64,000 nt of DNA from Escherichia phage UPEC03, in the sequence record MW250785, one strand, 5' to 3'. Of the stretch, positions 14,563-43,053 are shown in pieces. Position 1 is the stretch's first letter. Each line of letters opens with the position of its first letter. The notes below the pieces were generated by a model. The model was not told the DNA's origin. It made no database searches and saw nothing but the letters and a program-made list of their open reading frames with translations. The position numbers and the translations under genes were made by a program.

Positions 14563-16062
14563 TTAAATTTCTACCTGTTTGATCGCGTAGTCGAATCGTT
14601 CTTCATTGTAGATCCGCACACGTTCCATAGCATGTTTCATACCGTAGTTTGTCGCACTGTATTTATTTTTGGCTGTCTTAGACTTTGACAGCGTAGCCAG
14701 GTTATCAACGATATCCCATACAGTAGCGAGCGCTTTCGATCCGTGCTTACGAAGTACACGACCGATAGACTGTTTCACCACAACAGCAGATTTGCAAGGG
14801 TGCGCAAAAATGATGTGGTGTAGGTTCTTGATTGAGATACCCGTACTCAGTACCCCGATCGAACCGATGACGATTAAACCTTTCGTCGATTCCGCGATTT
14901 TCTTCATTTCGTTACGATCGTCAATGTCTGTATCACCATTGACCAACACCACGTTATCGTAAACCTTGCTCAACTTCTCATACAGCCATTTTCCGTGTTC
15001 TTTGTAACGGAACATCACAAAGGCGTTTTCGTTCTTCTCACGGGCTAATTTGAGCGCTAATTTTAGAATCCACGCGTTGCGCCGTGTGTGGCTGGTTACG
15101 TACTTGATTTCCGTCTGGTAGTCCGCACCCTTCAATTTTTTGACCTCTTCTTCTTTGTATCGAAGGAAGATCGTGTTAATTTTCAGGTTGGTGACTTGTC
15201 CATCATCCATCAAACGACGTGTATCAACTGGTTTAAAGACTTTACCGAACGCACCGATGTATTGCATCATGTTCGTTTTCCCTTCTTTCAGGGAACCGGA
15301 TAAACCCAGTTTGAAGATACATTGATCCATCGTGTCGATAATCTTTTTGATGCTCATGCCTGTTGAGAGGTGGCATTCATCAACCATCAAACACATGAAC
15401 TGTTGGAACCATTCGGCAGGCATTTTAACCGCTGATTGCCAGGTAGAAACGTAAATCAGTGCATTACTGTTTTTCGCTGTACCGGAACGGATACCCAGCA
15501 TTGCCGATTTCGGGAACAAACGATAGTTTGCGATGTCCTCGATCATTTGGTCAACAAGTGCGGTAGTCGGAACGATGATCAACACTTTCCCGCTGTAATG
15601 TTCCAGACACCAACGAGAGATAAGCCCCTGAATCAGAGATTTACCTGCTGATGTTGGCAGGTTCAGAACACCGCGACGGTTTTTGATACCGTGGAACACT
15701 GATTCGCGTTGATACCAGTACGGGTCGATCTGTTTGTCGCCGTCATAAACCGGATGTTCGCTAACCCACTTATCAAAATCTTCTTGCGTGATATCCTCTG
15801 TTTCGTGGATCTTTGGATCAACCCAGATTGAATACCCGCGTGATTCTGCGAATTTGGATACCAGATAGGCTAACCCATACGGGAGTTTCCCGTTGTAGTC
15901 CATCAAGTAAATGTAACCGTTCCATCCACCATATTTGTATTTGGCCTGATACTGATAGCCTGGGGGCTGGAAGCTGAAATAGTCACGCAGTTCATAGACA
16001 ATGTTTGGTTCTGCCTGAATCTGTACGTGGCTTGTGTTTAAAAATTTGACTTCAATATCCAC
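14563..16062 (-). CDS. uvsW: UvsW DNA/RNA helicase (SF2)
   Basis: 499 aa; NLPTSAGKS Walker A, MVDECH DExH box, long blocks matching recalled T4 UvsW. Confidence 0.95.
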   Translation of the reverse strand: MDIEVKFLNTSHVQIQAEPNIVYELRDYFSFQPPGYQYQAKYKYGGWNGYIYLMDYNGKLPYGLAYLVSKFAESRGYSIWVDPKIHETEDITQEDFDKWVSEHPVYDGDKQIDPYWYQRESVFHGIKNRRGVLNLPTSAGKSLIQGLISRWCLEHYSGKVLIIVPTTALVDQMIEDIANYRLFPKSAMLGIRSGTAKNSNALIYVSTWQSAVKMPAEWFQQFMCLMVDECHLSTGMSIKKIIDTMDQCIFKLGLSGSLKEGKTNMMQYIGAFGKVFKPVDTRRLMDDGQVTNLKINTIFLRYKEEEVKKLKGADYQTEIKYVTSHTRRNAWILKLALKLAREKNENAFVMFRYKEHGKWLYEKLSKVYDNVVLVNGDTDIDDRNEMKKIAESTKGLIVIGSIGVLSTGISIKNLHHIIFAHPCKSAVVVKQSIGRVLRKHGSKALATVWDIVDNLATLSKSKTAKNKYSATNYGMKHAMERVRIYNEERFDYAIKQVEI

Positions 16063-22500: not shown

Positions 22501-23547
22501 ATGTTTGTGAAATATTCTTCTCTGACTAACCATTATGAAGGTAAATTCATCAATGGTGTGATCATGAATGGTTTTACTGGTTGTGTGTGGGTTGCGCGTG
22601 AAAAGATCCACGGGGCTAATTTTAGCCTGATTACCTCGGACGGTATCAAAGTCATTCCGGCAAAACGTAGCGGTGAAATTCTCCCTGCTGAACAGTTCTA
22701 CGGTTGTGAACCAGTAGTTGCAAAATACTCCGAACCTGTTCGTAAGCTGTGGGAAATTTTAGCAAATACCTGTGAATATAAGGAATATGCTGATACTGGT
22801 TCTTTGGTTGTTCAGGTATACGGCGAATTTGCGGGGCGTGGTGTTCAGAAAGATGTTGACTACGGCGAAAAAGATTTCTACGTATTTGATATCCGCGTTA
22901 ATGGTCAATTCCTCCCTGATAACGTTGTTGCAAATTACGCTGTTGCTGTTGGCCTGAAAATGGCTCCACTGCTGGCATACGGTACGTTTGACGAGATCCG
23001 CGCATTGCCTATCACCTTTGATTCGGTGGTTAACCTGGCGAACTCCGGTGCGATCCCTGCAAAGAACGGTGTTGAACCTGAGTTCAAAAACTTCATGATG
23101 CTGAAAGATGATGAAGGTGAGAACATCGCAGAAGGTTTCGTGATGAAGCCTGTTCAACCCGCTTTCATGCCGAACGGTGAACGTGTTGCAATCAAATGCA
23201 AAACGACGAAGTTCACCGAGAAGAAGAACAAGCAAGCGAACCGCTTCAATGCTCCTTCTGAACTGTCAGAAACAGACAAAGTGAAGCTGAACGAATTCAC
23301 CTGCTTCCTGACTGAAAACCGTGTGAAAAACGTCCTGTCAAAAATTGACAGCGCGAATCTCACCGCGAAAGATTTCGGTCGCGTGATGGGGCTGACGGTA
23401 CAGGATGCGCTGGAAGAAATCGAACGTAACTACGGACCTTTCCTGGAACAGTTCGAAAATCCAACGCTGGCGAAGAAAACCTTCACTAACGAAGCGTCAA
23501 ATCTGGTTCGTGAGAACTGGGGCGCAATCCTGAACAATGAATTTTAA
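22501..23547 (+). CDS. rnlB: RNA ligase 2 (RnlB/Rnl2)
   Basis: 348 aa; WVAREKIHGANFSL (ligase KxHG motif I), DFYVFDI, VAIKCK, GRVMGLTVQDALEE match recalled T4 Rnl2. Confidence 0.92.
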   Translation: MFVKYSSLTNHYEGKFINGVIMNGFTGCVWVAREKIHGANFSLITSDGIKVIPAKRSGEILPAEQFYGCEPVVAKYSEPVRKLWEILANTCEYKEYADTGSLVVQVYGEFAGRGVQKDVDYGEKDFYVFDIRVNGQFLPDNVVANYAVAVGLKMAPLLAYGTFDEIRALPITFDSVVNLANSGAIPAKNGVEPEFKNFMMLKDDEGENIAEGFVMKPVQPAFMPNGERVAIKCKTTKFTEKKNKQANRFNAPSELSETDKVKLNEFTCFLTENRVKNVLSKIDSANLTAKDFGRVMGLTVQDALEEIERNYGPFLEQFENPTLAKKTFTNEASNLVRENWGAILNNEF

Positions 23548-24118
23548 ATCTGTTCTCGAAAACGCAAAAACGGCTACCCTGATCGGTAGCCGTGAACCCC
23601 CTGAACGTATCGCGAGTATAGCCATAAAGATTGGACGTGCTTTAAGTGATCGGGGGATCTTCGCTTACTCTGGTGGTGCTCCTGGAATGGATAGCCATTT
23701 CATGTTTGACTACTCACCAGAAAGACGGCGTATAATCCTCCCTGAGAACGGTTTTAACGGGTTGTATTCGAATGGTAAGGATATCATCGACTATACAGAA
23801 TACGACACGTACAAAGCCGCTGACGAAGCGAGAAAGGTAGCTGGACACTTCGACAACCAAAACGAATGGACACAACGCCGATACGCTCGCAATTCAATGC
23901 AGGTATTAACCGAAAACCTGGACAAACCTACAGATTTTGTTCTATTCTGGGCGGTAGAGAAAGATTTTTGTGTTAAAGGTGGTACTGCGATTGCTGCAAG
24001 GCTTGCCAGATTGTATAAAGTTCCAACGTTCAACCTTTGGAATCAAAACGTTCTGGATGAAGTCTGCGATACTTTAGGGATTAACACTAAACCTCCTACT
24101 CTGGATTTTCTCTGGTGA
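23537..24118 (+). CDS. DprA/Smf-like (SLOG Rossmann) domain protein
   Basis: GSREPPE…IGRALSDRGIFAYSGGAPGMDSHF resembles DprA GSR…SGGAxGxDxxxH motif. Confidence 0.4.
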   Translation: MNFKSVLENAKTATLIGSREPPERIASIAIKIGRALSDRGIFAYSGGAPGMDSHFMFDYSPERRRIILPENGFNGLYSNGKDIIDYTEYDTYKAADEARKVAGHFDNQNEWTQRRYARNSMQVLTENLDKPTDFVLFWAVEKDFCVKGGTAIAARLARLYKVPTFNLWNQNVLDEVCDTLGINTKPPTLDFLW

Positions 24119-25466: not shown

Positions 25467-26900
25467 ATGCAAAAATTTAATGAACTGAATAGCCTGATCA
25501 CCTCAACTGATTCCTATAAAGTGTCCCACTGGTTGCAGTATCCACAAGGCACTGATGCAGCGATGTTCTATATTGAATCTCGCGGTGGTAAGTTTGATGA
25601 AGTAGTAACCGCTGGCGTTAACTTCGTTGCGCGGGTTCTTGCTGAACCAATTACCATGAAACAAGTTGAGTTGGCACGGGTACTTTACCGTAAGCACTTT
25701 GGGAAAGAGATTTTCAACTACAAAGGGTGGAAGAAGATCGCAGAACTGGGTTATGTCCCTGTTACTTTCCGTGCGATCCCAGAAGGTACGGTTGTTCCGG
25801 TTAAAAATGCCGTTGCGACTGTGTACGCCGAACGTGAATTCTCATGGGTGGCTGGGTGGCTGGAGACAATGACGATTCGCGGTATCTGGTATCCGTCATC
25901 TGTAGCAACGCTATCGCGCGAGTGTAAAAAGGTTCTGGCTCATTACCTTGATATGACTTCTGACCTGACTGGTGAAGCATATAACATCACACTGGGTACA
26001 CGTCTGCATGATTTCGGGGCGCGTGGCGCGACCTCTGCTGAATCTGCTGGTATTGGTGGGCTGGCACACCTCTATAACTTCATCGGGACTGATACCGTTG
26101 AAGGTATGATTATGGCAATCAGTCTGTTTGCGGACTATCAAACTCTGTTTGACGAAGTTGAAAACGTCGAAGCAATCGGTGTTTCAATTCCGGCTCGCGA
26201 ACATTCGACTACGATTTCCTACGGTAAAGAGAACGAAGACGAAGCATACAAAAACAGCATCGAAATGTTCGGTACAGGGTTCTACGCTTGTGTGTATGAT
26301 TCCTGGGACTATAAAGGCGCTGTAGATCGCATCGCTGAATATAAAGAGCAAATCATTGCTGCGGGTGGTACTCTGGTTGTTCGTCCTGATTCCGGTGATA
26401 TGATTGATAACATCATGTACACCCTGCGTAAACTGGGCGAAATCTTCGGATACACCGTAAACAGCAAAGGTTATAAAGTTCTGCATAATTCAGTTCGAAT
26501 CATCCAGGGCGACGAGATCCACGGGCCTGAAACAATCAACCGTGTGTTAAGTTGGATGGAAGCGAACAAGTGGGCGAGTGAGAACATCGCGTTCGGTATG
26601 GGCGGCGGTTTGCTGCAAGAAGTTACCCGCGACACTCAAAAGTATGCTGAAAAACTGTGCGCTATCCGCGTGAATGGTGTGTGGAAAGGTGTTTACAAAT
26701 GCCCGAAAGGTTCCGAATGGAAACAGAGTAAGAAAGGTTTGCTGATGACCATCACTAACGGTGTGGAATTCAAAACAATCGACACTCTGGAAACTGAGAT
26801 TCCTGACGGGTGGCGTGATGCGATGATTACGTATTACGACAACGGTGTATTAAACACCTCCGATACAGTAGGGGTTATCCGTGAGCGAGCAAGGATTTAA
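25467..26900 (+). CDS. nadV: Nicotinamide phosphoribosyltransferase (Nampt/NadV family)
   Basis: 477 aa; N-terminal …TDSYKVSHWLQYP… signature and overall length typical of Nampt; phage NadV is known from KVP40-type T4-like phages. Confidence 0.85.
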   Translation: MQKFNELNSLITSTDSYKVSHWLQYPQGTDAAMFYIESRGGKFDEVVTAGVNFVARVLAEPITMKQVELARVLYRKHFGKEIFNYKGWKKIAELGYVPVTFRAIPEGTVVPVKNAVATVYAEREFSWVAGWLETMTIRGIWYPSSVATLSRECKKVLAHYLDMTSDLTGEAYNITLGTRLHDFGARGATSAESAGIGGLAHLYNFIGTDTVEGMIMAISLFADYQTLFDEVENVEAIGVSIPAREHSTTISYGKENEDEAYKNSIEMFGTGFYACVYDSWDYKGAVDRIAEYKEQIIAAGGTLVVRPDSGDMIDNIMYTLRKLGEIFGYTVNSKGYKVLHNSVRIIQGDEIHGPETINRVLSWMEANKWASENIAFGMGGGLLQEVTRDTQKYAEKLCAIRVNGVWKGVYKCPKGSEWKQSKKGLLMTITNGVEFKTIDTLETEIPDGWRDAMITYYDNGVLNTSDTVGVIRERARI

Positions 26901-27189
26901 TATCCGCGCCAACGATAACGGATCAGTAGTCTTCTACAACAATCAGCCCCTTGTCGCTCGCAAGGGGCTTTTTTGTAAGTTGGTGGGCTACGGGTTCAAG
27001 TTGGAACAGGTGGACAACGCGACACTAAAAGAGGTTGTTCGAATTGCTTATCTGCTGAAAGATAAAAAAGATGAACACCGTGCTATTGCAATGCTTGAGA
27101 AATTAGGCGAAAATTATTGCTTCGTGGTGAATCGTGGGTATAAGTACGAAACGATCGCCTTATTTGAGAAAGGACTTGGTGAATTATGA
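26881..27189 (+). CDS. Hypothetical protein
   Basis: 102 aa ORF with GTG start overlapping nadV 3' end. Confidence 0.45.
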   Translation: MSEQGFNIRANDNGSVVFYNNQPLVARKGLFCKLVGYGFKLEQVDNATLKEVVRIAYLLKDKKDEHRAIAMLEKLGENYCFVVNRGYKYETIALFEKGLGEL

Positions 27190-28025
27190 TTACCACAATC
27201 AAAGAAGGGGTTGACCTCCATTTAGGCGACTCCGTAAAGCTGATTAAACAGCTTGAATCTGGTTCTGTTGACTTGACCATAACTTCGCCTCCGTATGACA
27301 ACTTGCGCCATTATAACGGCTCTGGTGATGTCTGGGGTGAACACGTATGGAAAGAGTTGATATCGGAACTGTACCGCGTTACCGCTCCTGGTGGTGTGGT
27401 TGTGTGGGTTGTGGGTGACGCGACTATCAACGGTAGTGAAACGGGTACATCTTTCCGTCAAGCCTTGTACGCGATCGAACAAGGTTTTCGGTTGCATGAT
27501 ACGATGATCTATCACAAAACCGCTCTACCGAAGAACCATAACCGATACGAACAGGACTTTGAATACATGTTCGTGTGGACAAAAGGCGCACCAAAAACAT
27601 TCAACCCGATCCGCATTCCGTGTAAGTTCCCTGAAAAGGAAACCGCACGACAAAACAGCTACTTTTCCGAAACCAACGAAAAGAACCGTTCAGCCCGTTC
27701 CGGTAAGAAACGTAAACCTGTTGGCAAGGATAAAATTAAGGGTAATATCTGGTATTACGCTGTAGGGCGCAATCACTCAACGAAGGACGAGATTGCATTC
27801 AAACACCCAGCAATATTTCCTGAACAACTGGCAGAAGATCACATTAAAACGTGGACGGTTGAAGGGGACTTGGTTCTTGATATTTTCTCTGGTTCTGGTA
27901 CAGTTATGAAAATGTCGATACTAACCAACAGACGGTTCAAAGGCTTCGAACTGATGGAGAATTATTATCACGATTCTATTCTTCGTGTTCAGCCATACGT
28001 TAACAATCTGGAATCTTTTCTATGA
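27186..28025 (+). CDS. DNA amino-methyltransferase, beta-class (N4-cytosine or N6-adenine)
   Basis: Motif IV TITSPPY near N-terminus, motif I DIFSGSGT near C-terminus (beta permutation); the SPPY variant is more typical of N4C-MTases. Confidence 0.8.
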   Translation: MITTIKEGVDLHLGDSVKLIKQLESGSVDLTITSPPYDNLRHYNGSGDVWGEHVWKELISELYRVTAPGGVVVWVVGDATINGSETGTSFRQALYAIEQGFRLHDTMIYHKTALPKNHNRYEQDFEYMFVWTKGAPKTFNPIRIPCKFPEKETARQNSYFSETNEKNRSARSGKKRKPVGKDKIKGNIWYYAVGRNHSTKDEIAFKHPAIFPEQLAEDHIKTWTVEGDLVLDIFSGSGTVMKMSILTNRRFKGFELMENYYHDSILRVQPYVNNLESFL

Positions 28026-28873
28026 GTTATTTGGGTGTTATCCCGTATACAGGTAACAAGCAATCGCTATTGCCTGAACTCTTCAAGCTGTTCCCCGAAA
28101 GAAGTTCATACATGCGTTTCATTGATTGTTTTTGCGGTGGTCTTAGTGTGTCGTTAAACGTCCCTAAACCCGTTCTAAGCAACGATTATGATAAGACGCT
28201 TATTGATATGTATGAGCGTCTTAAAACGCTTCCTGACCTGTCTCCGGTGCGAGAATTGATTGCATCGAAGGGACTGGGGAAAGACAAGAAAGAAGAGTAT
28301 CTGAAATTCCGTGATGAATACAACCAGAATAAAGATCCTTTATGGCTCTATGTCCTGATCCTGCATTCATTCAGCAACGTTAACCGGACAAACGACAAAG
28401 GCGACTTCAACGCTAATTTTGGATGCCGGACGCTCAACGATGCAACAGTAAAACGCTTTGAACATTTCAAAAAGAATGTGAAAGGCATTGAGTTTTCCAG
28501 TGGTTCATTCCGTGACATTGATATCTGTGAAAATGATTTCGTGTATTGCGATCCTCCGTATCTGATCACTGATGCGGTGTATAACAAATTCTGGAACGCA
28601 GATCACGAACGCGAGTTATATGCTTTCCTTGACTCCCTGCATGAGCGGGGTATTTGGTTTGGTTTGTCCAACGTGACTCACCATGCCGGAAAACAAAATG
28701 ATACCCTGATTGAATGGATGCAGAAATACCGCGTTCATAATCTGGATAAAAAGTATCTGTTAGGCCAGCATACCGACTCTTACGAGCAAAACAAAACGCA
28801 AGAAGTCTACGTGTGCAACTACCAGAAACGCGACGTAAATACATTCCCTTTAACACTGAACGATTTAATGTAG
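28022..28873 (+). CDS. dam: DNA adenine methyltransferase Dam (T4 Dam-like)
   Basis: IPYTGNKQSLLPEL, FIDCFCGGLSVSLNV, DFVYCDPPYLIT match recalled T4 Dam. Confidence 0.92.
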   Translation: MSYLGVIPYTGNKQSLLPELFKLFPERSSYMRFIDCFCGGLSVSLNVPKPVLSNDYDKTLIDMYERLKTLPDLSPVRELIASKGLGKDKKEEYLKFRDEYNQNKDPLWLYVLILHSFSNVNRTNDKGDFNANFGCRTLNDATVKRFEHFKKNVKGIEFSSGSFRDIDICENDFVYCDPPYLITDAVYNKFWNADHERELYAFLDSLHERGIWFGLSNVTHHAGKQNDTLIEWMQKYRVHNLDKKYLLGQHTDSYEQNKTQEVYVCNYQKRDVNTFPLTLNDLM

Positions 28874-31831: not shown

Positions 31832-32683
31832 ATGTTTTACACAATCTACAAAATAACCAACACTATCAATGGGCGTGAATATATCGGCGCTCATAAAACT
31901 GATAATCTCGATGATCGATACATGGGTTCTGGAAAGAACATCAAACATGCTATTGATTTCTATGGCATTGAATCTTTCGTAAAGGAAATATTGTATGTTT
32001 TTGATACGGAAGAGGAAATGTATCTAAAAGAAGCTGAACTCGTAACAGACGAGTATATTTCGCTTCCTCACACATACAACATCAAACCCGGTGGTAAAGG
32101 CGGAACGGCCTACGAACAAAGCGAAGAACATCGACGCAAAAACAGTAATGCGCTAAAAGGAAGAGAAATCACTCCATTACATCGCGATCGGATCTCCCGT
32201 GCATTGAAAAATCATGTCCGTAGTGAAGAACATCAACGGAAACTGAGTGAAGCATCAAAGATTGCTGTTAGTACACCCGAACATAAAGAAAAGATGTCTG
32301 CTCATTTTACAGAACTGTATAAATCTCGTCCTGAATTGAAACAGCAAATATCATCTTCTGTCAAAGCACATTATGCTAATGAAACAGAAGAAGAGAAAAA
32401 TCAACGTCGATTGCGTCATACAGGGAAGGTTCGGTCGGAAGAAACCAAACAAAAACTATCCATTGCTCATAAAGGAAAACATACAGGAGAGAAAAATCCT
32501 ATGTTCGGCAAACCTGCATCGAATCGCCGTATGGTTTCTGGTGATGGTGTTGTGTATGGTTCCGTCAAAGAAGCTGCGGAAACACTGGGGTTGTCGCAAG
32601 GAACAATCGTTGCTCGATGCAAATCACAGAAAAATGTAAATTGGTTCTATGTAGGTGTTGACTTGCCGAATCAAATCGATTAG
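31832..32683 (+). CDS. GIY-YIG homing endonuclease (seg/I-Tev-like), paralog of 11102..11737
   Basis: [30 protein letters not shown]; N-terminal ~70 aa near-identical to the other GIY-YIG ORF. Confidence 0.8.
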
Positions 32684-35436: not shown

Positions 35437-35598
35437 ATGAAAAACGCAATCATCAAAGAAATCTGTGAACTGGTTGATGTGTATGGTTGGAGTTTAGGCG
35501 CTGCTAAAGCAGAAGCCAAATCTCGTCTGGAAGTTGTAATCAAAGCCCGTAGCAAAGATGAATTTGTTACTAAATTGCAAGCCCTCTATGAGAGATAA
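35437..35598 (+). CDS. Hypothetical small protein
   Basis: 53 aa ORF with GAGGACGAG RBS. Confidence 0.45.
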   Translation: MKNAIIKEICELVDVYGWSLGAAKAEAKSRLEVVIKARSKDEFVTKLQALYER

Positions 35599-35602
35599 TA
35601 TC

Positions 35603-36553
35603 ATGATCCTGAATTTTAAAACCCGTAAAGAAGCCCGTGACTATTGCTGGAAGTGGTCGATTCCGCTGAAAAATATCAACAAACAATCCGCTGGTTCGCA
35701 TCCGTGGACGGTGAGAACAAAAGAAACCCGCTTCGTAAGCGGTAAAGATTATAAACTGATTGATGTCGAAGGTTTCACCGATAACGGCAAAAACGTTGCT
35801 AACCGCATCCAGGCGCAACAGATCAACAAATTCATGAACGGTGTTGTAAGCATCACAAGCCGTGATGGTGATCGCTATACATTCAACGCTCCAGCAGGTG
35901 TTGCTATGAACACCCTTCGTGCATGGGAAGCGAAATACTTCACAGAAGTTATTCCTGGTAAAGCCCCAGCGCCAAAACGCGCTAAAAAGCCAAAACCAGT
36001 AGGCAAACCGTCTGTTGCTCCTGCACCAGCTAAACCGGATCTGGATTCTGAACTGGATGGTGGCGTTAACCTCGCTCCAACAACAGAACCAGTTGCGAAA
36101 CCTGCTGCACCACAGCCAGCGACAGTTGAAGCAATGCCGCATAACTTTGTTGCAAATCGTCCGTATGTTCTGGTAGATGAACTAGGTTTCTTGCGCTCTC
36201 ACACTGCGAACGAACGCATTGTGCAACACATCAAAAACAACAACGGTGTTCTGGTGTTTGACTCGGTTGACGGCGACGGTGACGCGACTATCGAACAAGA
36301 TCGTAGCCTCCAGTTTGTGATGCATCGTGAGCGTGTATTCTTCCGTGAACTCGGTACTGGTAATCCGGCAAACACTCCATCGGTTCAGACCGTTGATATT
36401 ACCAAACAGCAACGCGATAAAGAGATCATCAAAGCTGCACAGGCAGTAGAAGACGCACTGGCAGAACACCAAACGGCGATCGTAGTTGTTACACAGAAAG
36501 CTCGCGCAGTTCGTGAAGCCGCTGCAAAACTTGCACTGCTGGCACGTAAGTAA
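35603..36553 (+). CDS. Hypothetical protein with Pro/Ala/Lys-rich linker
   Basis: ORF with central low-complexity APAPKRAKKPKPVGKPSVAPAPAKP linker; followed by terminator. Confidence 0.5.
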   Translation: MILNFKTRKEARDYCWKWSIPLKNINKQSAGSHPWTVRTKETRFVSGKDYKLIDVEGFTDNGKNVANRIQAQQINKFMNGVVSITSRDGDRYTFNAPAGVAMNTLRAWEAKYFTEVIPGKAPAPKRAKKPKPVGKPSVAPAPAKPDLDSELDGGVNLAPTTEPVAKPAAPQPATVEAMPHNFVANRPYVLVDELGFLRSHTANERIVQHIKNNNGVLVFDSVDGDGDATIEQDRSLQFVMHRERVFFRELGTGNPANTPSVQTVDITKQQRDKEIIKAAQAVEDALAEHQTAIVVVTQKARAVREAAAKLALLARK

Positions 36554-36561
36554 TATAATTC

Positions 36562-36589
36562 GGGGGTGCTTACGGCATCCCCTTTTTTA
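36562..36589 (+). terminator. Intrinsic terminator
   Basis: gggggtgc…gcatcccc hairpin + TTTTTT. Confidence 0.7.
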
Positions 36590-36601: not shown

Positions 36602-37336
36602 ATGGAATTATTCGCTGGAAAAACTTACGGTTTAACCGTATCCCCTGAAATCTTTGCAGAGAAAACCTGGAAAACAGGTATCGCAAACATCATTCGTGAA
36701 AAAGGTTACGTGACGATTGATCGCACCTCGATCGGTGAGTTCGAAGACCGCGCGTTTATCATGGACGGTGGTTACGAATATGAACTCCCTGCATCACTAT
36801 GGAAATGGTTCAAGGAAGTAACGCCGGAAAATGGTGAATTCACCTCAGAAGAACCAGAAGAAGTTAATCTGAGTAAAGGTGTAGAGGCTGAAAACGTTAT
36901 GCATATCGCTACGCCGGAAGAGGTTTCCGCTGGTGTTACCGGATCGGATCTGCGTCTGATGGAGATCCCTAAATTCACGTATCGCCCTGTACAGGAAAAT
37001 CCTCTGCGCGATCTCCGCATCGATCCATCATTCGGGGCTAACCTGGAAACGTTGAGCATCGCACCGATGCCTGTACGTAAATCTGATGCAATGCTTCGTT
37101 TCGCCTTGCAACATGTTTTCAGTGGTGGTAGCATCTATCAAATCAACATGGAATCTGAACTGAAAATGCAGGAAGACCAGATTGCAAACCTGTTCGAACT
37201 GCACACCCAGTTAACCGCTGTTGAGAATATCGAAAAACTGTTAGGCAAAGAGAAAAAGCGTATTTTGCAGGATCTCAAACCATACGGAAAGAAGAATGAA
37301 AGTCGAAATCTACGGAATTCCCGAAAGTCTTCATAA
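36602..37336 (+). CDS. Hypothetical protein
   Basis: ORF starting at ATG (MELFAGK) after terminator. Confidence 0.5.
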   Translation: MELFAGKTYGLTVSPEIFAEKTWKTGIANIIREKGYVTIDRTSIGEFEDRAFIMDGGYEYELPASLWKWFKEVTPENGEFTSEEPEEVNLSKGVEAENVMHIATPEEVSAGVTGSDLRLMEIPKFTYRPVQENPLRDLRIDPSFGANLETLSIAPMPVRKSDAMLRFALQHVFSGGSIYQINMESELKMQEDQIANLFELHTQLTAVENIEKLLGKEKKRILQDLKPYGKKNESRNLRNSRKSS

Positions 37337-37574
37337 CTGTTACGGGTGTATACAAGCACAAAAGCTGTTGACAGAAAAAGGGATAGAATATACATTTTAT
37401 CCCGTTCTGAAAGAAGCGAAAAACGATCTGGGCTTTGAATACGATCGCCCACGTATCGAAGAGTTAGCAAAACGGGTAAGGCAACGTAGTTTAGCGTTTC
37501 AATACCCGCGTATTTTTGTCGATAACAAACTTATCGGCGGTTATCTGCAACTGAAACAACTTATTGGTGATTAA
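37296..37574 (+). CDS. Glutaredoxin/thioredoxin-fold protein (CxxC)
   Basis: YGIPESLHNCYGCIQAQKLL…FVDNKLIGGYLQLKQLI resembles NrdC/glutaredoxin layout. Confidence 0.6.
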   Translation: MKVEIYGIPESLHNCYGCIQAQKLLTEKGIEYTFYPVLKEAKNDLGFEYDRPRIEELAKRVRQRSLAFQYPRIFVDNKLIGGYLQLKQLIGD

Positions 37575-37913
37575 ATGAGTCGTGAAATTTTACTCCCTGC
37601 TGCAAATGCTGTTCATGCTGAAACGATGGAATACATGGAGAAATTCGTTGAACGCGATAACACCGCGATCATCACTCCTACTCACCTGGACGCGCTCGAA
37701 GATCGTCTTCATAAGCAGATTAAAGATCAATTCCCTGAAAAGGTTAGCCGCAACTTCATTCGTCAGGAAATCGTTGCAATGATGCTGAAACATTACGGCG
37801 TTGAAATCTTCGGTGTCGAACCACTGAAACCGAAGAAAGCACGTCAAATGCCTAAACAGATCACCGACGAAGCAATCAAGAAATACCAGAAGAAATACGC
37901 TAAGAATAAATGA
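37575..37913 (+). CDS. Hypothetical protein
   Basis: 112 aa ORF. Confidence 0.5.
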   Translation: MSREILLPAANAVHAETMEYMEKFVERDNTAIITPTHLDALEDRLHKQIKDQFPEKVSRNFIRQEIVAMMLKHYGVEIFGVEPLKPKKARQMPKQITDEAIKKYQKKYAKNK

Positions 37914-39337
37914 TCTTTCATACGATTGAATGTGTTCCGTCAAGTGGTAAAACAAAGGCGATTCTGAACCATATCAATCAAACGGGCGAAAAAGCAATCA
38001 TCGCTTCGATTTCCATGATGTTATCAAAACAGTCTTATGACTACTACATCAACCAGGTAAAAGGGAAACGAGCGGTGATTGTGGACACGGATCACCGAAC
38101 CAAAAGAACCAATAATGATGCGCTGCGTGAGGTTGTCAAAGATTATGATGTGATCTTTATCACTCATGCAGCACTCAAAAACATTGATGACTTTGATTTG
38201 TATAAGGATTTTTCTCTGTACATTGACGAAGTTCCTGATTTGGTTGCGTTCGAAAGTCTGCGATTTAATAGCAATATCAAGCACATACGCGAGATTTGCT
38301 TGCCGTTTAGTTGCAATGCCGATGATATCGTTGATTTAAAACTTGACGAAGAAAAACGAGAACTGGTTACACGATTAGCCTATGATGGGCTTCGTAAACG
38401 TGATGATATCGCAATGAAGATGTTCCCGCTTTACCGTGCTCTGTTAGGGGCTATTCCGGTGAAGATGCAATGTAGCGATTCGGGATATGTCTGTTACTTC
38501 GTAGAGGATCATGACGTAAGCCAGTGGAAGTTCAAAAATGTAACCATTGCTTCATCCAACATCAAAGATACGATTACAGGGAAGATCCTACAAACGTTTC
38601 ATGATGTGGAGTTCAAAGATTCACCGCTTCAAACGCTGGTTGACTTTAAGCAATATAAAAACACGAAGCGCATTAAAATACATGTGCTCGCAGAGGGGGA
38701 TTATTCGCGTTATACGGGTGATCTCTCTCAATCTGGGACGACAGTATACACCCAGATTAAAAAACGCGTGGAGGCGCTTTTAGGGGGCGAACAGTTCATC
38801 TATTGCACCAACACGTATCGATCGAAGTTTAGCGAGGGGCAGGAAATCCCGTATAACTCGCACGGATTGAACTTCTATTCGAGCTATACTAACGTGGTAG
38901 CATTATTCAGTTACAACCCGTTACCCTGGCTTCGTCAAATGTTGCGAGCGGTTGCGGTGTCCTCTGGACTCGAAGAGGAAGAATTAGTTGATGCTTATGT
39001 TGTCAGTAAATATTACGAACCAGCCTTTCAGTTATGCGCTCGTTCTGATATCCGACACAACAACAGCAAAAGAAAGATTAATTTATTTGTGCCTGATATG
39101 CGGTTAGCGAAATACATGAAGGAAAAATATTTTCCCGATGCCATTATCGAAACCACAGAAGCAGTTCAAACGAAAAGGCAACGCAAATCATTTCAAACCC
39201 TTTTCCAAATGACGGACAAAGAGAAAAACGCTTTTACGCCATACAAGAAAAGAAACAAATTAGATTATGCGAATCCTCTTCATCACGCGATTGTTAAAGA
39301 TTGGCTGAACAATTACCGTGAGAAAAAGGCGACTTGA
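37910..39337 (+). CDS. P-loop NTPase-like protein (Walker A PSSGKT, Walker B LYIDEV), function unknown
   Basis: 475 aa; N-terminal VPSSGKTKAIL and ~100 aa later FSLYIDEVPD; immediately upstream of gene 34. Confidence 0.5.
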   Translation: MIFHTIECVPSSGKTKAILNHINQTGEKAIIASISMMLSKQSYDYYINQVKGKRAVIVDTDHRTKRTNNDALREVVKDYDVIFITHAALKNIDDFDLYKDFSLYIDEVPDLVAFESLRFNSNIKHIREICLPFSCNADDIVDLKLDEEKRELVTRLAYDGLRKRDDIAMKMFPLYRALLGAIPVKMQCSDSGYVCYFVEDHDVSQWKFKNVTIASSNIKDTITGKILQTFHDVEFKDSPLQTLVDFKQYKNTKRIKIHVLAEGDYSRYTGDLSQSGTTVYTQIKKRVEALLGGEQFIYCTNTYRSKFSEGQEIPYNSHGLNFYSSYTNVVALFSYNPLPWLRQMLRAVAVSSGLEEEELVDAYVVSKYYEPAFQLCARSDIRHNNSKRKINLFVPDMRLAKYMKEKYFPDAIIETTEAVQTKRQRKSFQTLFQMTDKEKNAFTPYKKRNKLDYANPLHHAIVKDWLNNYREKKAT

Positions 39338-39352
39338 TGGTCGCCTTTTTTG
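39327..39352 (+). terminator. Intrinsic terminator before gene 34 late promoter
   Basis: aggcgac…gtcgcct hairpin + TTTTTT. Confidence 0.75.
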
Positions 39353-39354
39353 TT

Positions 39355-39362
39355 TATAAATA
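39355..39362 (+). promoter_or_regulatory. T4-type late promoter TATAAATA (gene 34)
   Basis: Exact TATAAATA after terminator, ~32 nt upstream of gene 34. Confidence 0.65.
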
Positions 39363-39393
39363 TCAGTATTGAATAAGATAAAGGAAAACGATA

Positions 39394-42300
39394 ATGGTAG
39401 CTAAATCATTCCGCGCCACAAGTGGCCTTGATGCTGCTGGCGAAAAAGTTATCAACGTTGGTAAAGCATCACGCTCTGTGTTGAGCGACGGCGTGAACGT
39501 TGACTTTTTTAACGAATTTAACACGATCCAACAATACGATTCTACCCGTGGTTATGCTGCGTTTATGGCTATCATGTACGCGCGTCGTATTTGGTACGCT
39601 CGCGCAGATATTCCATCACCAGCGGGTGCTTTCGATGAAACAAAATGGATCTCAACCCGTAACGATCCAAAATGGGTATATAACAACGTAACGAGCAATG
39701 ACGGTCTCCCTGTTGAATCCGGTACGTACTTAATGGCTGACGGTCGTTTCTCTGAATTGACCTATATTCTGCCAGATGCCCCTGTTGAGGGTGATATTAT
39801 CACTATTAAAGATGGTGGCGGTCTTGCAGGGATCAACAACCTGTTAGTGCGTTCAAACACTCGTCAGATCCGTTTACGTGATATTCAGTCAAGCTCTTAT
39901 CGACTGACTCACCCATATATGACCGTTGCGTTTATTTTTAACGGCAACTTATGGCGTGTTGCTGAAATGCGTGATAACCGTGATTCGCAGTTTGTTAATG
40001 CGACTGGTTTAACCGCTTTCCAAATGCAAGCGGGTATGGTAACATTCCGTAACAGTGGAACGGGTAAAATTACGTTGCAGTTGCCTCGCTACGCAAACGA
40101 TGGTGACTCAATCACAACTTACGATCTGGATCGCCTTGCTTCGGTGAACGTTGCGACTCTGCAAGTTTATCCTGGTAGCGGACACACGATCAGTTATGAC
40201 GGTATCAATAACGTACCCTCTGTGACTTCACAGCGTTCCGGTTATGGTATTTTCATGTTCGATCAGGCTAATAACCGTTGGGTTGTTTATGACGGTGATC
40301 AGCGCGTTCGTCTGCGTCGTATCAGTGATGACCTGAACATGTTGCCGAACGATTACGTGTTCATTACTCCTGTTGCTGGTAGTCCTCCAACTGTGCGTAA
40401 CGTTACGCTGACTCTTCCGCAAGATGTTGCCGAAGGTGATCGCGTGTATATCAGTATGTACATGATGGGGAAAACGCAGAACTGCACGATCAAAGTTAAA
40501 GATGGTTCCGGTGAAAAGATCCGCACCAACAAAAACATGATGCAGTTCCCACAGCGTAAGGATTATCCGCCTAATGATTGGTTCAGTGTTGACACTCTGA
40601 CTTTCAATGCCGATACTGACTATCTTCCATACATGGAATTGTCGTATCTGAAAGCTACGAAAGAATGGGTAGTTGCACAGTATCGCCCGATCATTGAACG
40701 TGTCGATCCAACAAACCGTTCTCGTCTGGGTGTGATTGCGCTGGCTACACAGGCAGAAGTAAACAAGAACCATGAAGATACGCCGTCTGATGAACTGGCA
40801 GTAACCCCGCGTACACTGGCGAATAAAACCGCTACTGAAACGCGTCGTGGTATCGCTCGCCTGGCAACAACTGCGGAAGTTAACCAGAACACGACAGCAA
40901 CCTTCCTTGATGACGTGATCGTGACGCCTAAAAAGCTGAACGAACGATCAGCAACAGAAGATCGTCGTGGGGTGCTGGAAATCGCAACTCAGGCAGAAAC
41001 AAACGCTGGTACTGATGACACTACCGCAATCACGCCTAAGAAGCTCGACACACGCCGCGCGACCGAAACCCTAGCAGGTATCGGAAAACTCGTTACAACG
41101 GGCGCTACGACAGCGGAGGGGGCTTTACGTGGGGATGCTGGTACTAACGTCTACAACTTCAATAACGGTGTTGATCTGATCACTCCGAAATCATTGAACG
41201 AGAAGACGGCGACCGAAAAGTCAAAAGGTCTGGTTGTTCTGGCGACTGAAAACGAAGTGGTAACTGGTGCTGCTGCGGGATCTGCTTCAATGCCGATCGT
41301 AGTAACTCCTGAAATGCTGCATCGTAAAACGTCTACTGAAACGCGTATCGGATTGATTGAGATCGCAACCCAGACAGAAACAAACACGGGAACTGACGAT
41401 CTCCGTGCTGTAACGCCTAAGAAGCTGAACGATCGTAAAGCGACTGAATCACTTGATGGTATTATTGCCCTCGCTACCACTGCGGAAGTTGCAGCAGGTA
41501 CGGTAACGAATAAGGCGGTTGTTCCGGTTAAGCTGAAAGAGTTCTTCGACGTTACAAGTCATGTTGCGGTTGCTACCGATGACGGTTTAACTCAGTCCGG
41601 CACTATCTGGACAACGATTAACCTGGGGATTGCGTCTGCTACTGAAACACAGCGCGGTACTTTACGTGTTGCGACTCAGGGTGAAACTGATGCGGGTCTT
41701 CTGGATACCGTGTTCATTACGCCTAAGAAACTGCAAGCGAAGAAAGCGACGGATACCGCCGAAGGTATTATTCGTTGTGCGACTAACGCGGAAGCGGGTG
41801 CGGGTACTGCTACTAACCTGGCAATTACTCCGGCTACCATGCAGTTCTTGAACGGTACTGATCCGGCGTGGGGTGCGACGACAACTCGACGCGGTGCGGT
41901 GTTTATCACTACCCAATCAAACACTTTCATCGGTGATAATCTGGTTGGTTCTACTCAGGCCGTTGACGATTATCTCGAAGATTTCTATGCTGTATCGCCT
42001 CGCGGTCTGAACTTTGCTCTGCAAAACTTCTTACCGAAAATGGCAACGGCACAGAATAGTTTGAGTCTGGGCGGTGTGGTTGCTGCAAGCTGGATGCGTC
42101 GTGATGCAAACCAGACGGTAACTGGAAATAACACGTTTAACGGTACAAGCAACTTCGTTGGTAACGTAACCACTAACGGAACACTGACGGCTAACGCTGC
42201 GGTAACGGTTAACAACACCGTAACCACGAACAATAACATTAACCAGTCTGCGAAAGCAAACACTGTTTATGCAAATACTGTTCTGAGTGGTGAGGCTGCG

Positions 42301-43053
42301 GGAACCAAAAACTTGCTTCGTACCTTCCGTGGTGGTGTGGCGGATACGATCTGGCATGAAACTGTTCAGGCAAGCACGTATCGCCTGGCGACGGGTACAA
42401 CGGATCTGGTTGACGTTCTGACAGTAGGTGATGTCGGTAACGGCACAATGGCGTATTCCGGTACGAACATTCGTCTGAATGGTAAAGCTCTGGCTAACAT
42501 CAACACGGCGGGTGATTTGTTTGTTGCAAGTACAGCAACGCCTACGGTACAATTACGAACCGCTGCAACTAATGGTTGGAACGGTGTAACAATCAGTAAT
42601 GACGGCGGCACAACCACTGCAACCGTGATCAACACCCGAAACTTTACCCAGCATCTTGACAGTACCTATGTCAACGTAGCGGGTGATACTATGACTGGTG
42701 CGCTGTCAGTTAGCGTAAACGGTACGGGTGGACGCTTTACCAGTGTGAGCGGTACGGCACATGTTCAGGCGGGTGATTTCTCTGGGAACGTCCAGAAAAT
42801 GCGCTTAACTGGCATTGACGATAAGGTATTGACTGAGTTCAACATCAATATCACCGATTACAACAAAGCGATGATCAACGGAAACCTGATCTATCATGCA
42901 GGTCGTAAACCGACTCCGGCAGAAATCGGGGCGGTGGCGGTAGCGGGTTCAACCGTCGATACTCTGGTTGTACGTAACTATATCAAAATCGGTAACGTGA
43001 AAATCTTCGCAAACCCAGCAACTAAGACTTGTGAATTTGTGTGGGAGGAATAA
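39394..43053 (+). CDS. 34: Long tail fiber proximal subunit gp34
   Basis: 1219 aa; repeated …ATETRRGIARLATTAEVNQNTT…RRGVLEIATQAETNAGTDDTTAITPKKL… blocks and C-terminal IGAVA…NYIKIGNVKI…FVWEE match T4 gp34; TATAAATA upstream. Confidence 0.93.
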   Translation: MVAKSFRATSGLDAAGEKVINVGKASRSVLSDGVNVDFFNEFNTIQQYDSTRGYAAFMAIMYARRIWYARADIPSPAGAFDETKWISTRNDPKWVYNNVTSNDGLPVESGTYLMADGRFSELTYILPDAPVEGDIITIKDGGGLAGINNLLVRSNTRQIRLRDIQSSSYRLTHPYMTVAFIFNGNLWRVAEMRDNRDSQFVNATGLTAFQMQAGMVTFRNSGTGKITLQLPRYANDGDSITTYDLDRLASVNVATLQVYPGSGHTISYDGINNVPSVTSQRSGYGIFMFDQANNRWVVYDGDQRVRLRRISDDLNMLPNDYVFITPVAGSPPTVRNVTLTLPQDVAEGDRVYISMYMMGKTQNCTIKVKDGSGEKIRTNKNMMQFPQRKDYPPNDWFSVDTLTFNADTDYLPYMELSYLKATKEWVVAQYRPIIERVDPTNRSRLGVIALATQAEVNKNHEDTPSDELAVTPRTLANKTATETRRGIARLATTAEVNQNTTATFLDDVIVTPKKLNERSATEDRRGVLEIATQAETNAGTDDTTAITPKKLDTRRATETLAGIGKLVTTGATTAEGALRGDAGTNVYNFNNGVDLITPKSLNEKTATEKSKGLVVLATENEVVTGAAAGSASMPIVVTPEMLHRKTSTETRIGLIEIATQTETNTGTDDLRAVTPKKLNDRKATESLDGIIALATTAEVAAGTVTNKAVVPVKLKEFFDVTSHVAVATDDGLTQSGTIWTTINLGIASATETQRGTLRVATQGETDAGLLDTVFITPKKLQAKKATDTAEGIIRCATNAEAGAGTATNLAITPATMQFLNGTDPAWGATTTRRGAVFITTQSNTFIGDNLVGSTQAVDDYLEDFYAVSPRGLNFALQNFLPKMATAQNSLSLGGVVAASWMRRDANQTVTGNNTFNGTSNFVGNVTTNGTLTANAAVTVNNTVTTNNNINQSAKANTVYANTVLSGEAAGTKNLLRTFRGGVADTIWHETVQASTYRLATGTTDLVDVLTVGDVGNGTMAYSGTNIRLNGKALANINTAGDLFVASTATPTVQLRTAATNGWNGVTISNDGGTTTATVINTRNFTQHLDSTYVNVAGDTMTGALSVSVNGTGGRFTSVSGTAHVQAGDFSGNVQKMRLTGIDDKVLTEFNINITDYNKAMINGNLIYHAGRKPTPAEIGAVAVAGSTVDTLVVRNYIKIGNVKIFANPATKTCEFVWEE

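Follow-up and report, generated by a model that had tools for sequence, protein, structure and literature searches.

Which protein does a T4-like phage encode directly upstream of gene 34, where T4 itself has rnh facing that gene? The question is raised by Escherichia phage UPEC03 (sequence record MW250785), of which a stretch of 64,000 nucleotides was analyzed (the window). In the window, gene 34 is preceded by an open reading frame (ORF) for a 475-residue protein, which the preliminary description of the locus had read as a candidate novel ATPase of unknown family. The first half of that reading stands: the protein is a putative ATPase that is still uncharacterized and belongs to PHROG 2467, a family listed with function unknown. 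The second half does not, since fold and profile searches connect the protein with superfamily 2 (SF2) helicases. Based on sequence comparisons and a predicted structure, the gene likely encodes a catalytically competent SF2 helicase or translocase. It would be an accessory fourth helicase, expressed from a prereplicative unit and probably aiding replication, recombination or transcription-replication traffic.

37910..39337, + strand: SF2 helicase-like ATPase gene, an ATG-started ORF for 475 amino acids (55 kDa, PHROG 2467)

The 475-residue protein and its predicted helicase fold

The ORF is far beyond what chance would produce, because it has 93 full-length homologues in a first large protein search, matches 241 phage records by tblastn and shows a ratio of nonsynonymous to synonymous substitution rates (dN/dS) of 0.015-0.14 against close relatives. 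The gene is under strong purifying selection. At this locus the window is 99.9% identical to Enterobacter phage phi5 (Pseudotevenvirus, RB43 group). The 475-residue start is correct because the ATG overlaps the stop codon of the upstream ORF (ATGA) and the N-terminus with Walker A is kept in all homologues. In the GenBank record of Citrobacter phage Margaery (L001 6166-7428), the gene begins at an internal GTG (V56), equivalent to 38075-39337 in the window, and the resulting 421-residue product has lost Walker A. The record of phage Miller probably shares this truncated start, as its tblastn match spans two coding sequences in the same way. The label ‘DNA primase’ is attached to the full-length gene in only two pharokka-annotated Klebsiella phages, phi1_146015 and phi1_146010 (H17 and H18); all other listed phage copies are annotated ‘hypothetical’. 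Both the truncated Margaery start and the ‘DNA primase’ label look wrong.

The domain layout was derived from a structure model (AF2, i.e. AlphaFold2; mean predicted local distance difference test score, pLDDT, 88.2; predicted template modelling score, pTM, 0.78) and from two alignments, one of 38 phage homologues and one of 63 diverged relatives with a mean column identity of 20%. The following elements were recognized.

37934..37957, + strand: motif I (Walker A), VPSSGKTK, residues 9-16, matching motif I of DEAD-box proteins
37997..38035, + strand: motif Ia-like IIASISMMLSKQS, residues 30-42, matching the ‘PTRELAxQ’ motif Ia of Mss116 and RhlE
38150..38176, + strand: conserved strand VIFITHAAL at the motif Ib position, residues 81-89, with a beta strand at 81-85 in the model
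38216..38239, + strand: motif II (Walker B), LYIDEVPD, residues 103-110, with D106 and E107 invariant in both alignments
38243..38524, + strand: inserted accessory domain between motifs II and III, residues 112-205 (~95 residues), from the secondary structure of the model
38537..38560, + strand: motif III-like NVTIASSN, residues 210-217, with a strand at 210-215 in the model
38657..39154, + strand: second RecA-like domain, approximately residues 250-415, with diverged motifs IV, V and VI: motif IV-like FIYCTNTYR (296-304), motif V-like YNSHGLNFY (315-323), NVVALFSYNPLPW (328-340) and motif VI-like FQLCARSDIR (373-382)
39167..39334, + strand: basic three-helix C-terminal tail, residues 420-475 (~56 residues), isoelectric point 10.2, with helices 428-431, 436-449 and 456-474 in the model

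The Walker motifs reported previously are confirmed, with VPSSGKT at residues 9-15 and LYIDEVPD at 103-110. Within motif I (SSGKT at residues 11-15), P10, G13, K14 and T15 are invariant among the phage homologues. So are A32 and L38 in the motif Ia-like segment, where S33, S35, S39, Q41 and S42 are nearly invariant, and V81, T85, H86 and L89 in VIFITHAAL. The box in motif II reads DEVP (residues 106-109) rather than DEAD or DEAH. NVTIASSN is assigned to motif III from its position; T212 and N217 are nearly invariant in the phage homologues and A216 in the diverged relatives. Eight residues are invariant across the 63 diverged relatives: K14, D106, E107, G319, N321, Q374, R378 and R382. The last three lie in FQLCARSDIR, which its position and invariance suggest to be motif VI.

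These features contradict the earlier statement that no helicase C-terminal motifs can be recognized, as a second RecA-like domain with diverged motifs IV, V and VI follows the first. The protein has the two tandem RecA-like domains of an SF2 enzyme, with Walker A and B in the first and the glutamine and arginines of motif VI in the second. The C-terminal tail is kept in phage and distant relatives, and its R.R.SF...M..E..AF motif is also present in the relatives P0097, P0099 and P0101; it is possibly a nucleic-acid-binding or partner-binding module. No Fe-S cluster domain was found, and there is no space for one between Walker A and Walker B. Only three alignment columns contain at least 50% Cys (reference positions 130, 215 and 376), none of them within residues 15-106.

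Searches at the level of fold and profile gave a consistent picture. The PHROG 2467 profile matches residues 1-474 over positions 8-499 of 502 (E 4.7e-192). In a Foldseek search of the PDB, the top 14 matches are XPD, DinG or CasDinG (E 4e-10 to 3e-7). The inserted domain of the phage protein occupies the place between motifs II and III at which the Arch domain is found in XPD and DinG. With the predicted structure as query, the DinG/XPD matches align over 297-346 residues, 40-90 more than the ~255 residues aligned for other SF2 proteins. A profile built from the 63 sequences matches domain 1 of DEAD-box proteins, reverse gyrase, Mfd, PriA and UvrB among PDB chains (2e-6 to 1e-3), and a Pfam DEAD or ResIII domain is found at the N-terminus of some close and many distant homologues. 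An exhaustive HMMER scan yielded 383 cluster representatives. A fold search of BFVD returned only phage helicases, unnamed or with generic names, and a second large protein search with a wider profile found no named homologue beyond ‘DEAD/DEAH box helicase’. Together, the fold and profile searches firmly place the predicted protein as a helicase of the SF2 type with a DinG/XPD-like layout.

The profile and structure searches thus led to SF2 helicases and not to the KAP, Zot-like or AAA+ ATPases that had been considered earlier; these were rejected, as Pfam gave no such matches and no such fold was among the top structural matches. A non-helicase P-loop nucleoside triphosphatase of a new family (KAP, Zot-like, AAA+ or packaging) in place of RNase H would fit only with the lack of significant single-sequence matches in Pfam, NCBIfam and the PDB. 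It is refuted by the fold and profile matches and by the presence of rnh in phi5 (see below), and we regard it as extremely improbable. Nothing supports a packaging function.

Several observations weigh against the helicase reading or narrow it. With the single sequence as query, no significant match was obtained in Pfam, NCBIfam, PADLOC or PDB sequences. The TM-scores to DinG and XPD are only 0.4-0.5 and come from a predicted structure. Motif II is DEVP, motif V ends with N instead of D, and the two arginines of motif VI are spaced one residue wider than usual (Q, R+4, R+8 instead of Q, R+4, R+7); a non-canonical activity is conceivable. A literature search that covered RB43 helicases and the locus tags of RB49 and of Aeromonas phages 25, 44RR and 65 found no publications on the family, and the family offers no studied member. 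Moreover, hhalign gives a probability of 92.5% to Escherichia coli RhlE and only 9.8% to E. coli DinG. By sequence profile, the protein looks closer to DEAD-box RNA helicases than to DinG, and therefore the DinG/XPD likeness rests on the predicted structure.

This raises the alternative of a DEAD-box-type RNA helicase or RNA-protein remodeller that acts in transcript release, mRNA turnover or translation at the late switch. Profiles match the first RecA-like domain (RecA1) of DEAD-box proteins best (Mss116 and DDX52 at 2e-6 to 3e-6, and RhlE), and in most T4-like phages the gene lies directly upstream of gene 55, which encodes the late sigma factor. DEAD-box proteins, however, are defined by an upstream Q motif, and the alignment to them starts only at Walker A; just 8 residues precede it in the phage protein, leaving no space for a Q motif. 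Motif II is not DEAD, motif III is not SAT, and a large insertion separates the two. The whole-chain fold favors DinG, XPD and CasDinG over DEAD-box proteins by 4-6 Z units. We consider this alternative improbable and prefer a DNA-directed SF2 helicase.

Gene order and transcription signals

The following features were located in the neighborhood of the helicase gene and, for UvsW, elsewhere in the window.

37575..37913, + strand: gp55.2 homologue of 112 amino acids, unannotated, whose stop codon overlaps the helicase start (ATGA)
39322..39351, + strand: intrinsic terminator closing the helicase unit, a hairpin with a T-run whose stem overlaps the stop codon (-18.1 kcal/mol, z -5.45 by RNA folding)
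39355..39362, + strand: T4-type late promoter TATAAATA for gene 34, by motif match
39394-43053: gene 34, 1219 amino acids, following a 56-bp spacer after the helicase gene that holds the terminator and the late promoter
14563-16062, - strand: UvsW orthologue (E 1.4e-184 to T4 UvsW, PDB 2OCA), opposite to the surrounding + strand ORFs

As described earlier, the gene lies directly upstream of gene 34 at an early/late boundary. Because a terminator and then a late promoter follow in the spacer, the helicase gene is the last of a non-late transcription unit. The annotation of phage Margaery has a terminator at the equivalent place. For the late promoter motif TATAAATA, 8 matches were counted in the window where 2.3 would be expected, and the + strand has none from 13.2 kb to 39.35 kb. 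A middle promoter pattern of the MotA-box type showed no enrichment, and the unit was therefore not assigned to a promoter class; a sigma-70 scan gave only background-level matches. Further upstream, an ORF of 331 residues with unknown function (35558-36582, + strand; PHROG 7419) has a Pro/Ala-rich linker in its middle and is followed by a strong terminator-like hairpin at 36562-36582. From this hairpin, the helicase transcription unit probably begins after 36.6 kb.

The upstream ORF aligns with T4 gp55.2 (hhalign probability 99%, E 2.8e-18; tblastn 3e-9) and shares PHROGs with annotated gp55.2 proteins. Homologues of T4 nrdG, nrdH and 55.2 are found just upstream of the helicase gene in the window, and the helicase gene is part of an nrdD-nrdG-nrdH-55.2 block. 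RB49 and Aeromonas phage 65 share the order nrdD-nrdG-nrdH-55.2-helicase-55-a-gt.4-47-46. Aeromonas phage 25 differs from this order only by two genes that separate 55.2 from the helicase. One of them, a gene for a DprA-like recombination mediator (L013 4423-4998), is directly upstream of the helicase gene and overlaps it; in the window, a DprA-like gene is found at 23537-24118, 14 kb away from the helicase. In T4, an unrelated 87-residue gene, 55.1, lies between 55.2 and 55, and the helicase is absent. We also considered gp55.1 as a remnant of the helicase and rejected this (hhalign probability 0.4%).

How, then, did the helicase gene come to lie beside gene 34? In phi5, rnh is located within the usual 32-59-33-dsbA-rnh cluster and faces 55-a-gt.4-47-46 rather than 34. 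In the window, nrdH-55.2-helicase runs straight into 34-35-36-37 (37296-43053). Compared with T4, two junctions are thus swapped in RB43-group phages (in phi5, L044 21037-26881, corresponding to record positions 155036-160880), with the breakpoints exactly at the terminator and late promoter that follow the helicase gene. The helicase gene came beside gene 34 by genome rearrangement, and its ancestral neighbors are 55.2 upstream and 55 downstream. Searches of the window by tblastn found no match to T4 rnh, dsbA, 33, 59, 32 or 55, and the suggested check for RNase H elsewhere in the genome was answered by the intact rnh of the 99.9%-identical phi5. The helicase gene as a replacement of rnh, as had been supposed, was thus rejected.

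The protein is also none of the helicases known from T4, in line with the preliminary description. UvsW is encoded separately on the - strand of the window, and the annotation of phi5 has Dda, gp41, gp59 and gp61 at other places. The gene is an addition to gp41, Dda and UvsW.

The link with 55.2 extends through most of the T4-like loci. In 30 of the 31, the 2 kb upstream on the same strand include a 55.2 homologue, which in ~20 loci directly adjoins or overlaps the start of the helicase gene. The target of T4 gp55.2 is E. coli topoisomerase I, which it inhibits (PMC4396842). The helicase and the coupled gp55.2 homologue could form a functional pair in which the block of topoisomerase I raises negative supercoiling and R-loops and the helicase clears or exploits them; R-loops on phage DNA could then serve R-loop-primed replication, and T4 would have lost the helicase and would rely on UvsW and Dda. 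We regard such a pairing as doubtful. One locus (L038) has the helicase without 55.2, and T4 keeps 55.2 without the helicase. Because the gene order is kept throughout T4-like genomes, adjacency to 55.2 is weak evidence of a partnership.

The same neighborhood bears on a possible role in counter-defence or inter-phage competition, in which the protein, as part of a hyperplastic region, would for example strip or evade a host immune complex. In T4, gp55.1 acts on a host protein. The T4 55.x genes are a variable block of small accessory genes, and the host topoisomerase is the target of gp55.2 (PMC4396842). The defence helicases CasDinG and DdmD are among the fold matches, and one of the bacterial islets described below carries a TIR-domain gene as cargo. 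PADLOC, however, gives no match and thus no support to the defence-related function proposed earlier, and dN/dS is low. The protein is 36-50% identical at one locus across phages of Escherichia, Aeromonas, Proteus and Vibrio hosts, which fits a core-like housekeeping function better. A counter-defence factor is accordingly even less probable in our view than an RNA helicase.

Other genes upstream on the + strand could be named from the annotation of a Klebsiella phage relative. Between nrdD and nrdG is a gene for a free-standing homing endonuclease (31832-32683); T4 carries mobC and I-TevII in its nrdD-nrdG region. The segment at 25467-28873 contains a nicotinamide phosphoribosyltransferase gene, a short ORF and two adjacent DNA methyltransferase genes (27186-28025 and 28022-28873).

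Distant relatives in bacterial islets

Outside phages, the relatives are core genes of small islets that consist of a tyrosine integrase (DUF6538 plus Phage_integrase), the helicase and a serine resolvase (P0093, P0098 and P0102). Such loci were found in Pseudomonas and in metagenomes (L003 8405-14798, L005 1529-6329, L009 5867-11274 and L010 886-4557). Another relative, P0148, is located near a resolvase, with no integrase visible on its short contig. This type of integrase-helicase-resolvase element may be undescribed, as judged from a limited literature search (DUF6538, GIsul2).

Many of these relatives are longer than the phage protein, with approximately 42 of the 141 family representatives measuring 750-900 residues. 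A C-terminal PriCT_1 domain scores above the Pfam threshold in P0122 (~800 residues), with a weak echo in P0148. An extra domain of DxD type occupies the C-terminal 300-400 residues of P0122, P0128 and P0148 and the N-terminal 360 residues of P0138, and P0105 has weak helix-turn-helix (HTH) matches in its tail. This suggests that the ~800-residue relatives are fusions of an SF2 helicase and a primase-like part, in an unusual helicase-first order. The long relatives and the islets point to a replication role in bacterial elements. The primase-associated domain in relatives probably explains the ‘DNA primase’ label of the two Klebsiella phage copies. In the 475-residue protein itself, neither a primase catalytic domain nor a PriCT domain is present, and its identity as a primase-helicase was rejected on this ground.

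These relatives suggest a further possibility, that a replication-initiation or primosome helicase of mobile elements was domesticated, captured by T4-like phages to start or restart replication at specific sites. Its primary job would be to open the origins of small integrative elements, with the basic tail or an HTH recognizing the DNA. The central place of the helicase in the islets, the long primase-like forms and the automatic ‘DNA primase’ label are consistent with such an origin. The phage protein, on the other hand, has no primase or PriCT domain, and the phage already encodes gp41, gp59 and gp61. The DNA beside the gene is not repeat-rich or origin-like, as there is only the 56-bp spacer, and no iteron arrays were found beside the bacterial homologues, where a search for iterons or origin-like repeats revealed no more than a 23-nt palindrome and short repeats at chance level. 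Between the phage clade and the islet proteins, identity is only 20-27%. We judge a domesticated initiator to be unlikely, if somewhat less so than the other alternatives considered here.

Proposed role and comparison with known helicases

In the mechanism that we favor, an accessory SF2 helicase of the prereplicative unit, the two RecA-like motor domains would bind and hydrolyze ATP at their interface. The expected ATP-site residues are K14 of Walker A, D106/E107 of Walker B and Q374/R378/R382 of motif VI, and the inserted ~95-residue domain and the basic tail would handle the substrate or a partner. Synthesis of the protein would be translationally coupled to that of the gp55.2 homologue within a non-late unit, which the terminator closes before the late promoter of gene 34. 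The ATP-driven DNA helicase may then aid replication, recombination or transcription-replication traffic, for instance by clearing R-loops or bound proteins as DinG-type enzymes do. By analogy with these enzymes, removal of R-loops or proteins is the most natural guess for its role. We infer, rather than observe, the substrate (DNA and not RNA), the polarity and the biological role. The fourth helicase, which is absent from T4, would have been passed on vertically within the RB43, RB49, Aeromonas, Proteus and Serratia branches; its gene directly follows 55.2 and, except in the RB43 group, directly precedes 55.

For phage DNA replication, T4 serves as the reference, and the three helicases that it encodes have entered the textbooks. 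A further one, strongly conserved at a single locus in many T4-like phages of Enterobacteria, Aeromonas, Proteus and Vibrio, would mark a gap in the T4 model. The analysis also corrects what appear to be two errors in annotation, namely the ‘DNA primase’ label and the truncated start by which Walker A is lost. K14, D106/E107 and R378/R382 provide defined residues for point mutants. In addition, the phage gene is connected with an undescribed family of helicases whose members are core genes of bacterial integrase-resolvase islets. The value of the finding lies in a well-defined, uncharacterized family as a target for the T4 replication field. It is not surprising in kind: the enzyme is an uncharacterized representative of the well-known SF2 helicases, and not a new kind of machine.

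Among known systems, the predicted structure is most similar in layout to XPD, Rad3 and DinG, especially to the Fe-S-less CasDinG of type IV CRISPR and to Staphylococcus aureus DinG. The phage protein differs from this family in lacking the four conserved cysteines and in having DEVP where XPD and DinG have DEAH. It is also smaller (475 versus ~550-900 residues) and has its own basic C-terminal tail. Membership in the XPD/DinG family was rejected on the first two grounds, together with the lack of a Pfam DEAD_2 or Helicase_C_2 match at E up to 10 and the low hhalign probability for DinG (9.8%).

Motifs I, Ia and II of the protein can be aligned with domain 1 of DEAD-box and ResIII proteins (PF00270 and PF04851), relatives score above or close to the Pfam thresholds, and the family profile matches Mss116, DDX52, reverse gyrase, Mfd, PriA and UvrB. 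The likeness is confined to RecA1, and the query itself is below Pfam detection; no relative matches Pfam Helicase_C, which covers the second RecA-like domain (RecA2). The phage protein has no space for the Q motif, and has neither a DEAD box nor a SAT motif.

Closer at the level of homology are the ‘DEAD/DEAH box helicase’ genes in islets of Pseudomonas and other bacteria, likewise uncharacterized, which are homologous across the helicase core and have the invariant residues and the inserted domain in common with the phage protein. At 20-27% identity, they and the ~800-residue helicase-PriCT_1 relatives are located in integrative elements, whereas the phage copy is carried by a virulent phage, and many of the islet-type relatives have an extra primase-associated domain that the phage protein lacks. 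Within the T4-like phages themselves, a parallel is T4 UvsW: UvsW and the protein described here would both be SF2 helicases encoded outside the late units.

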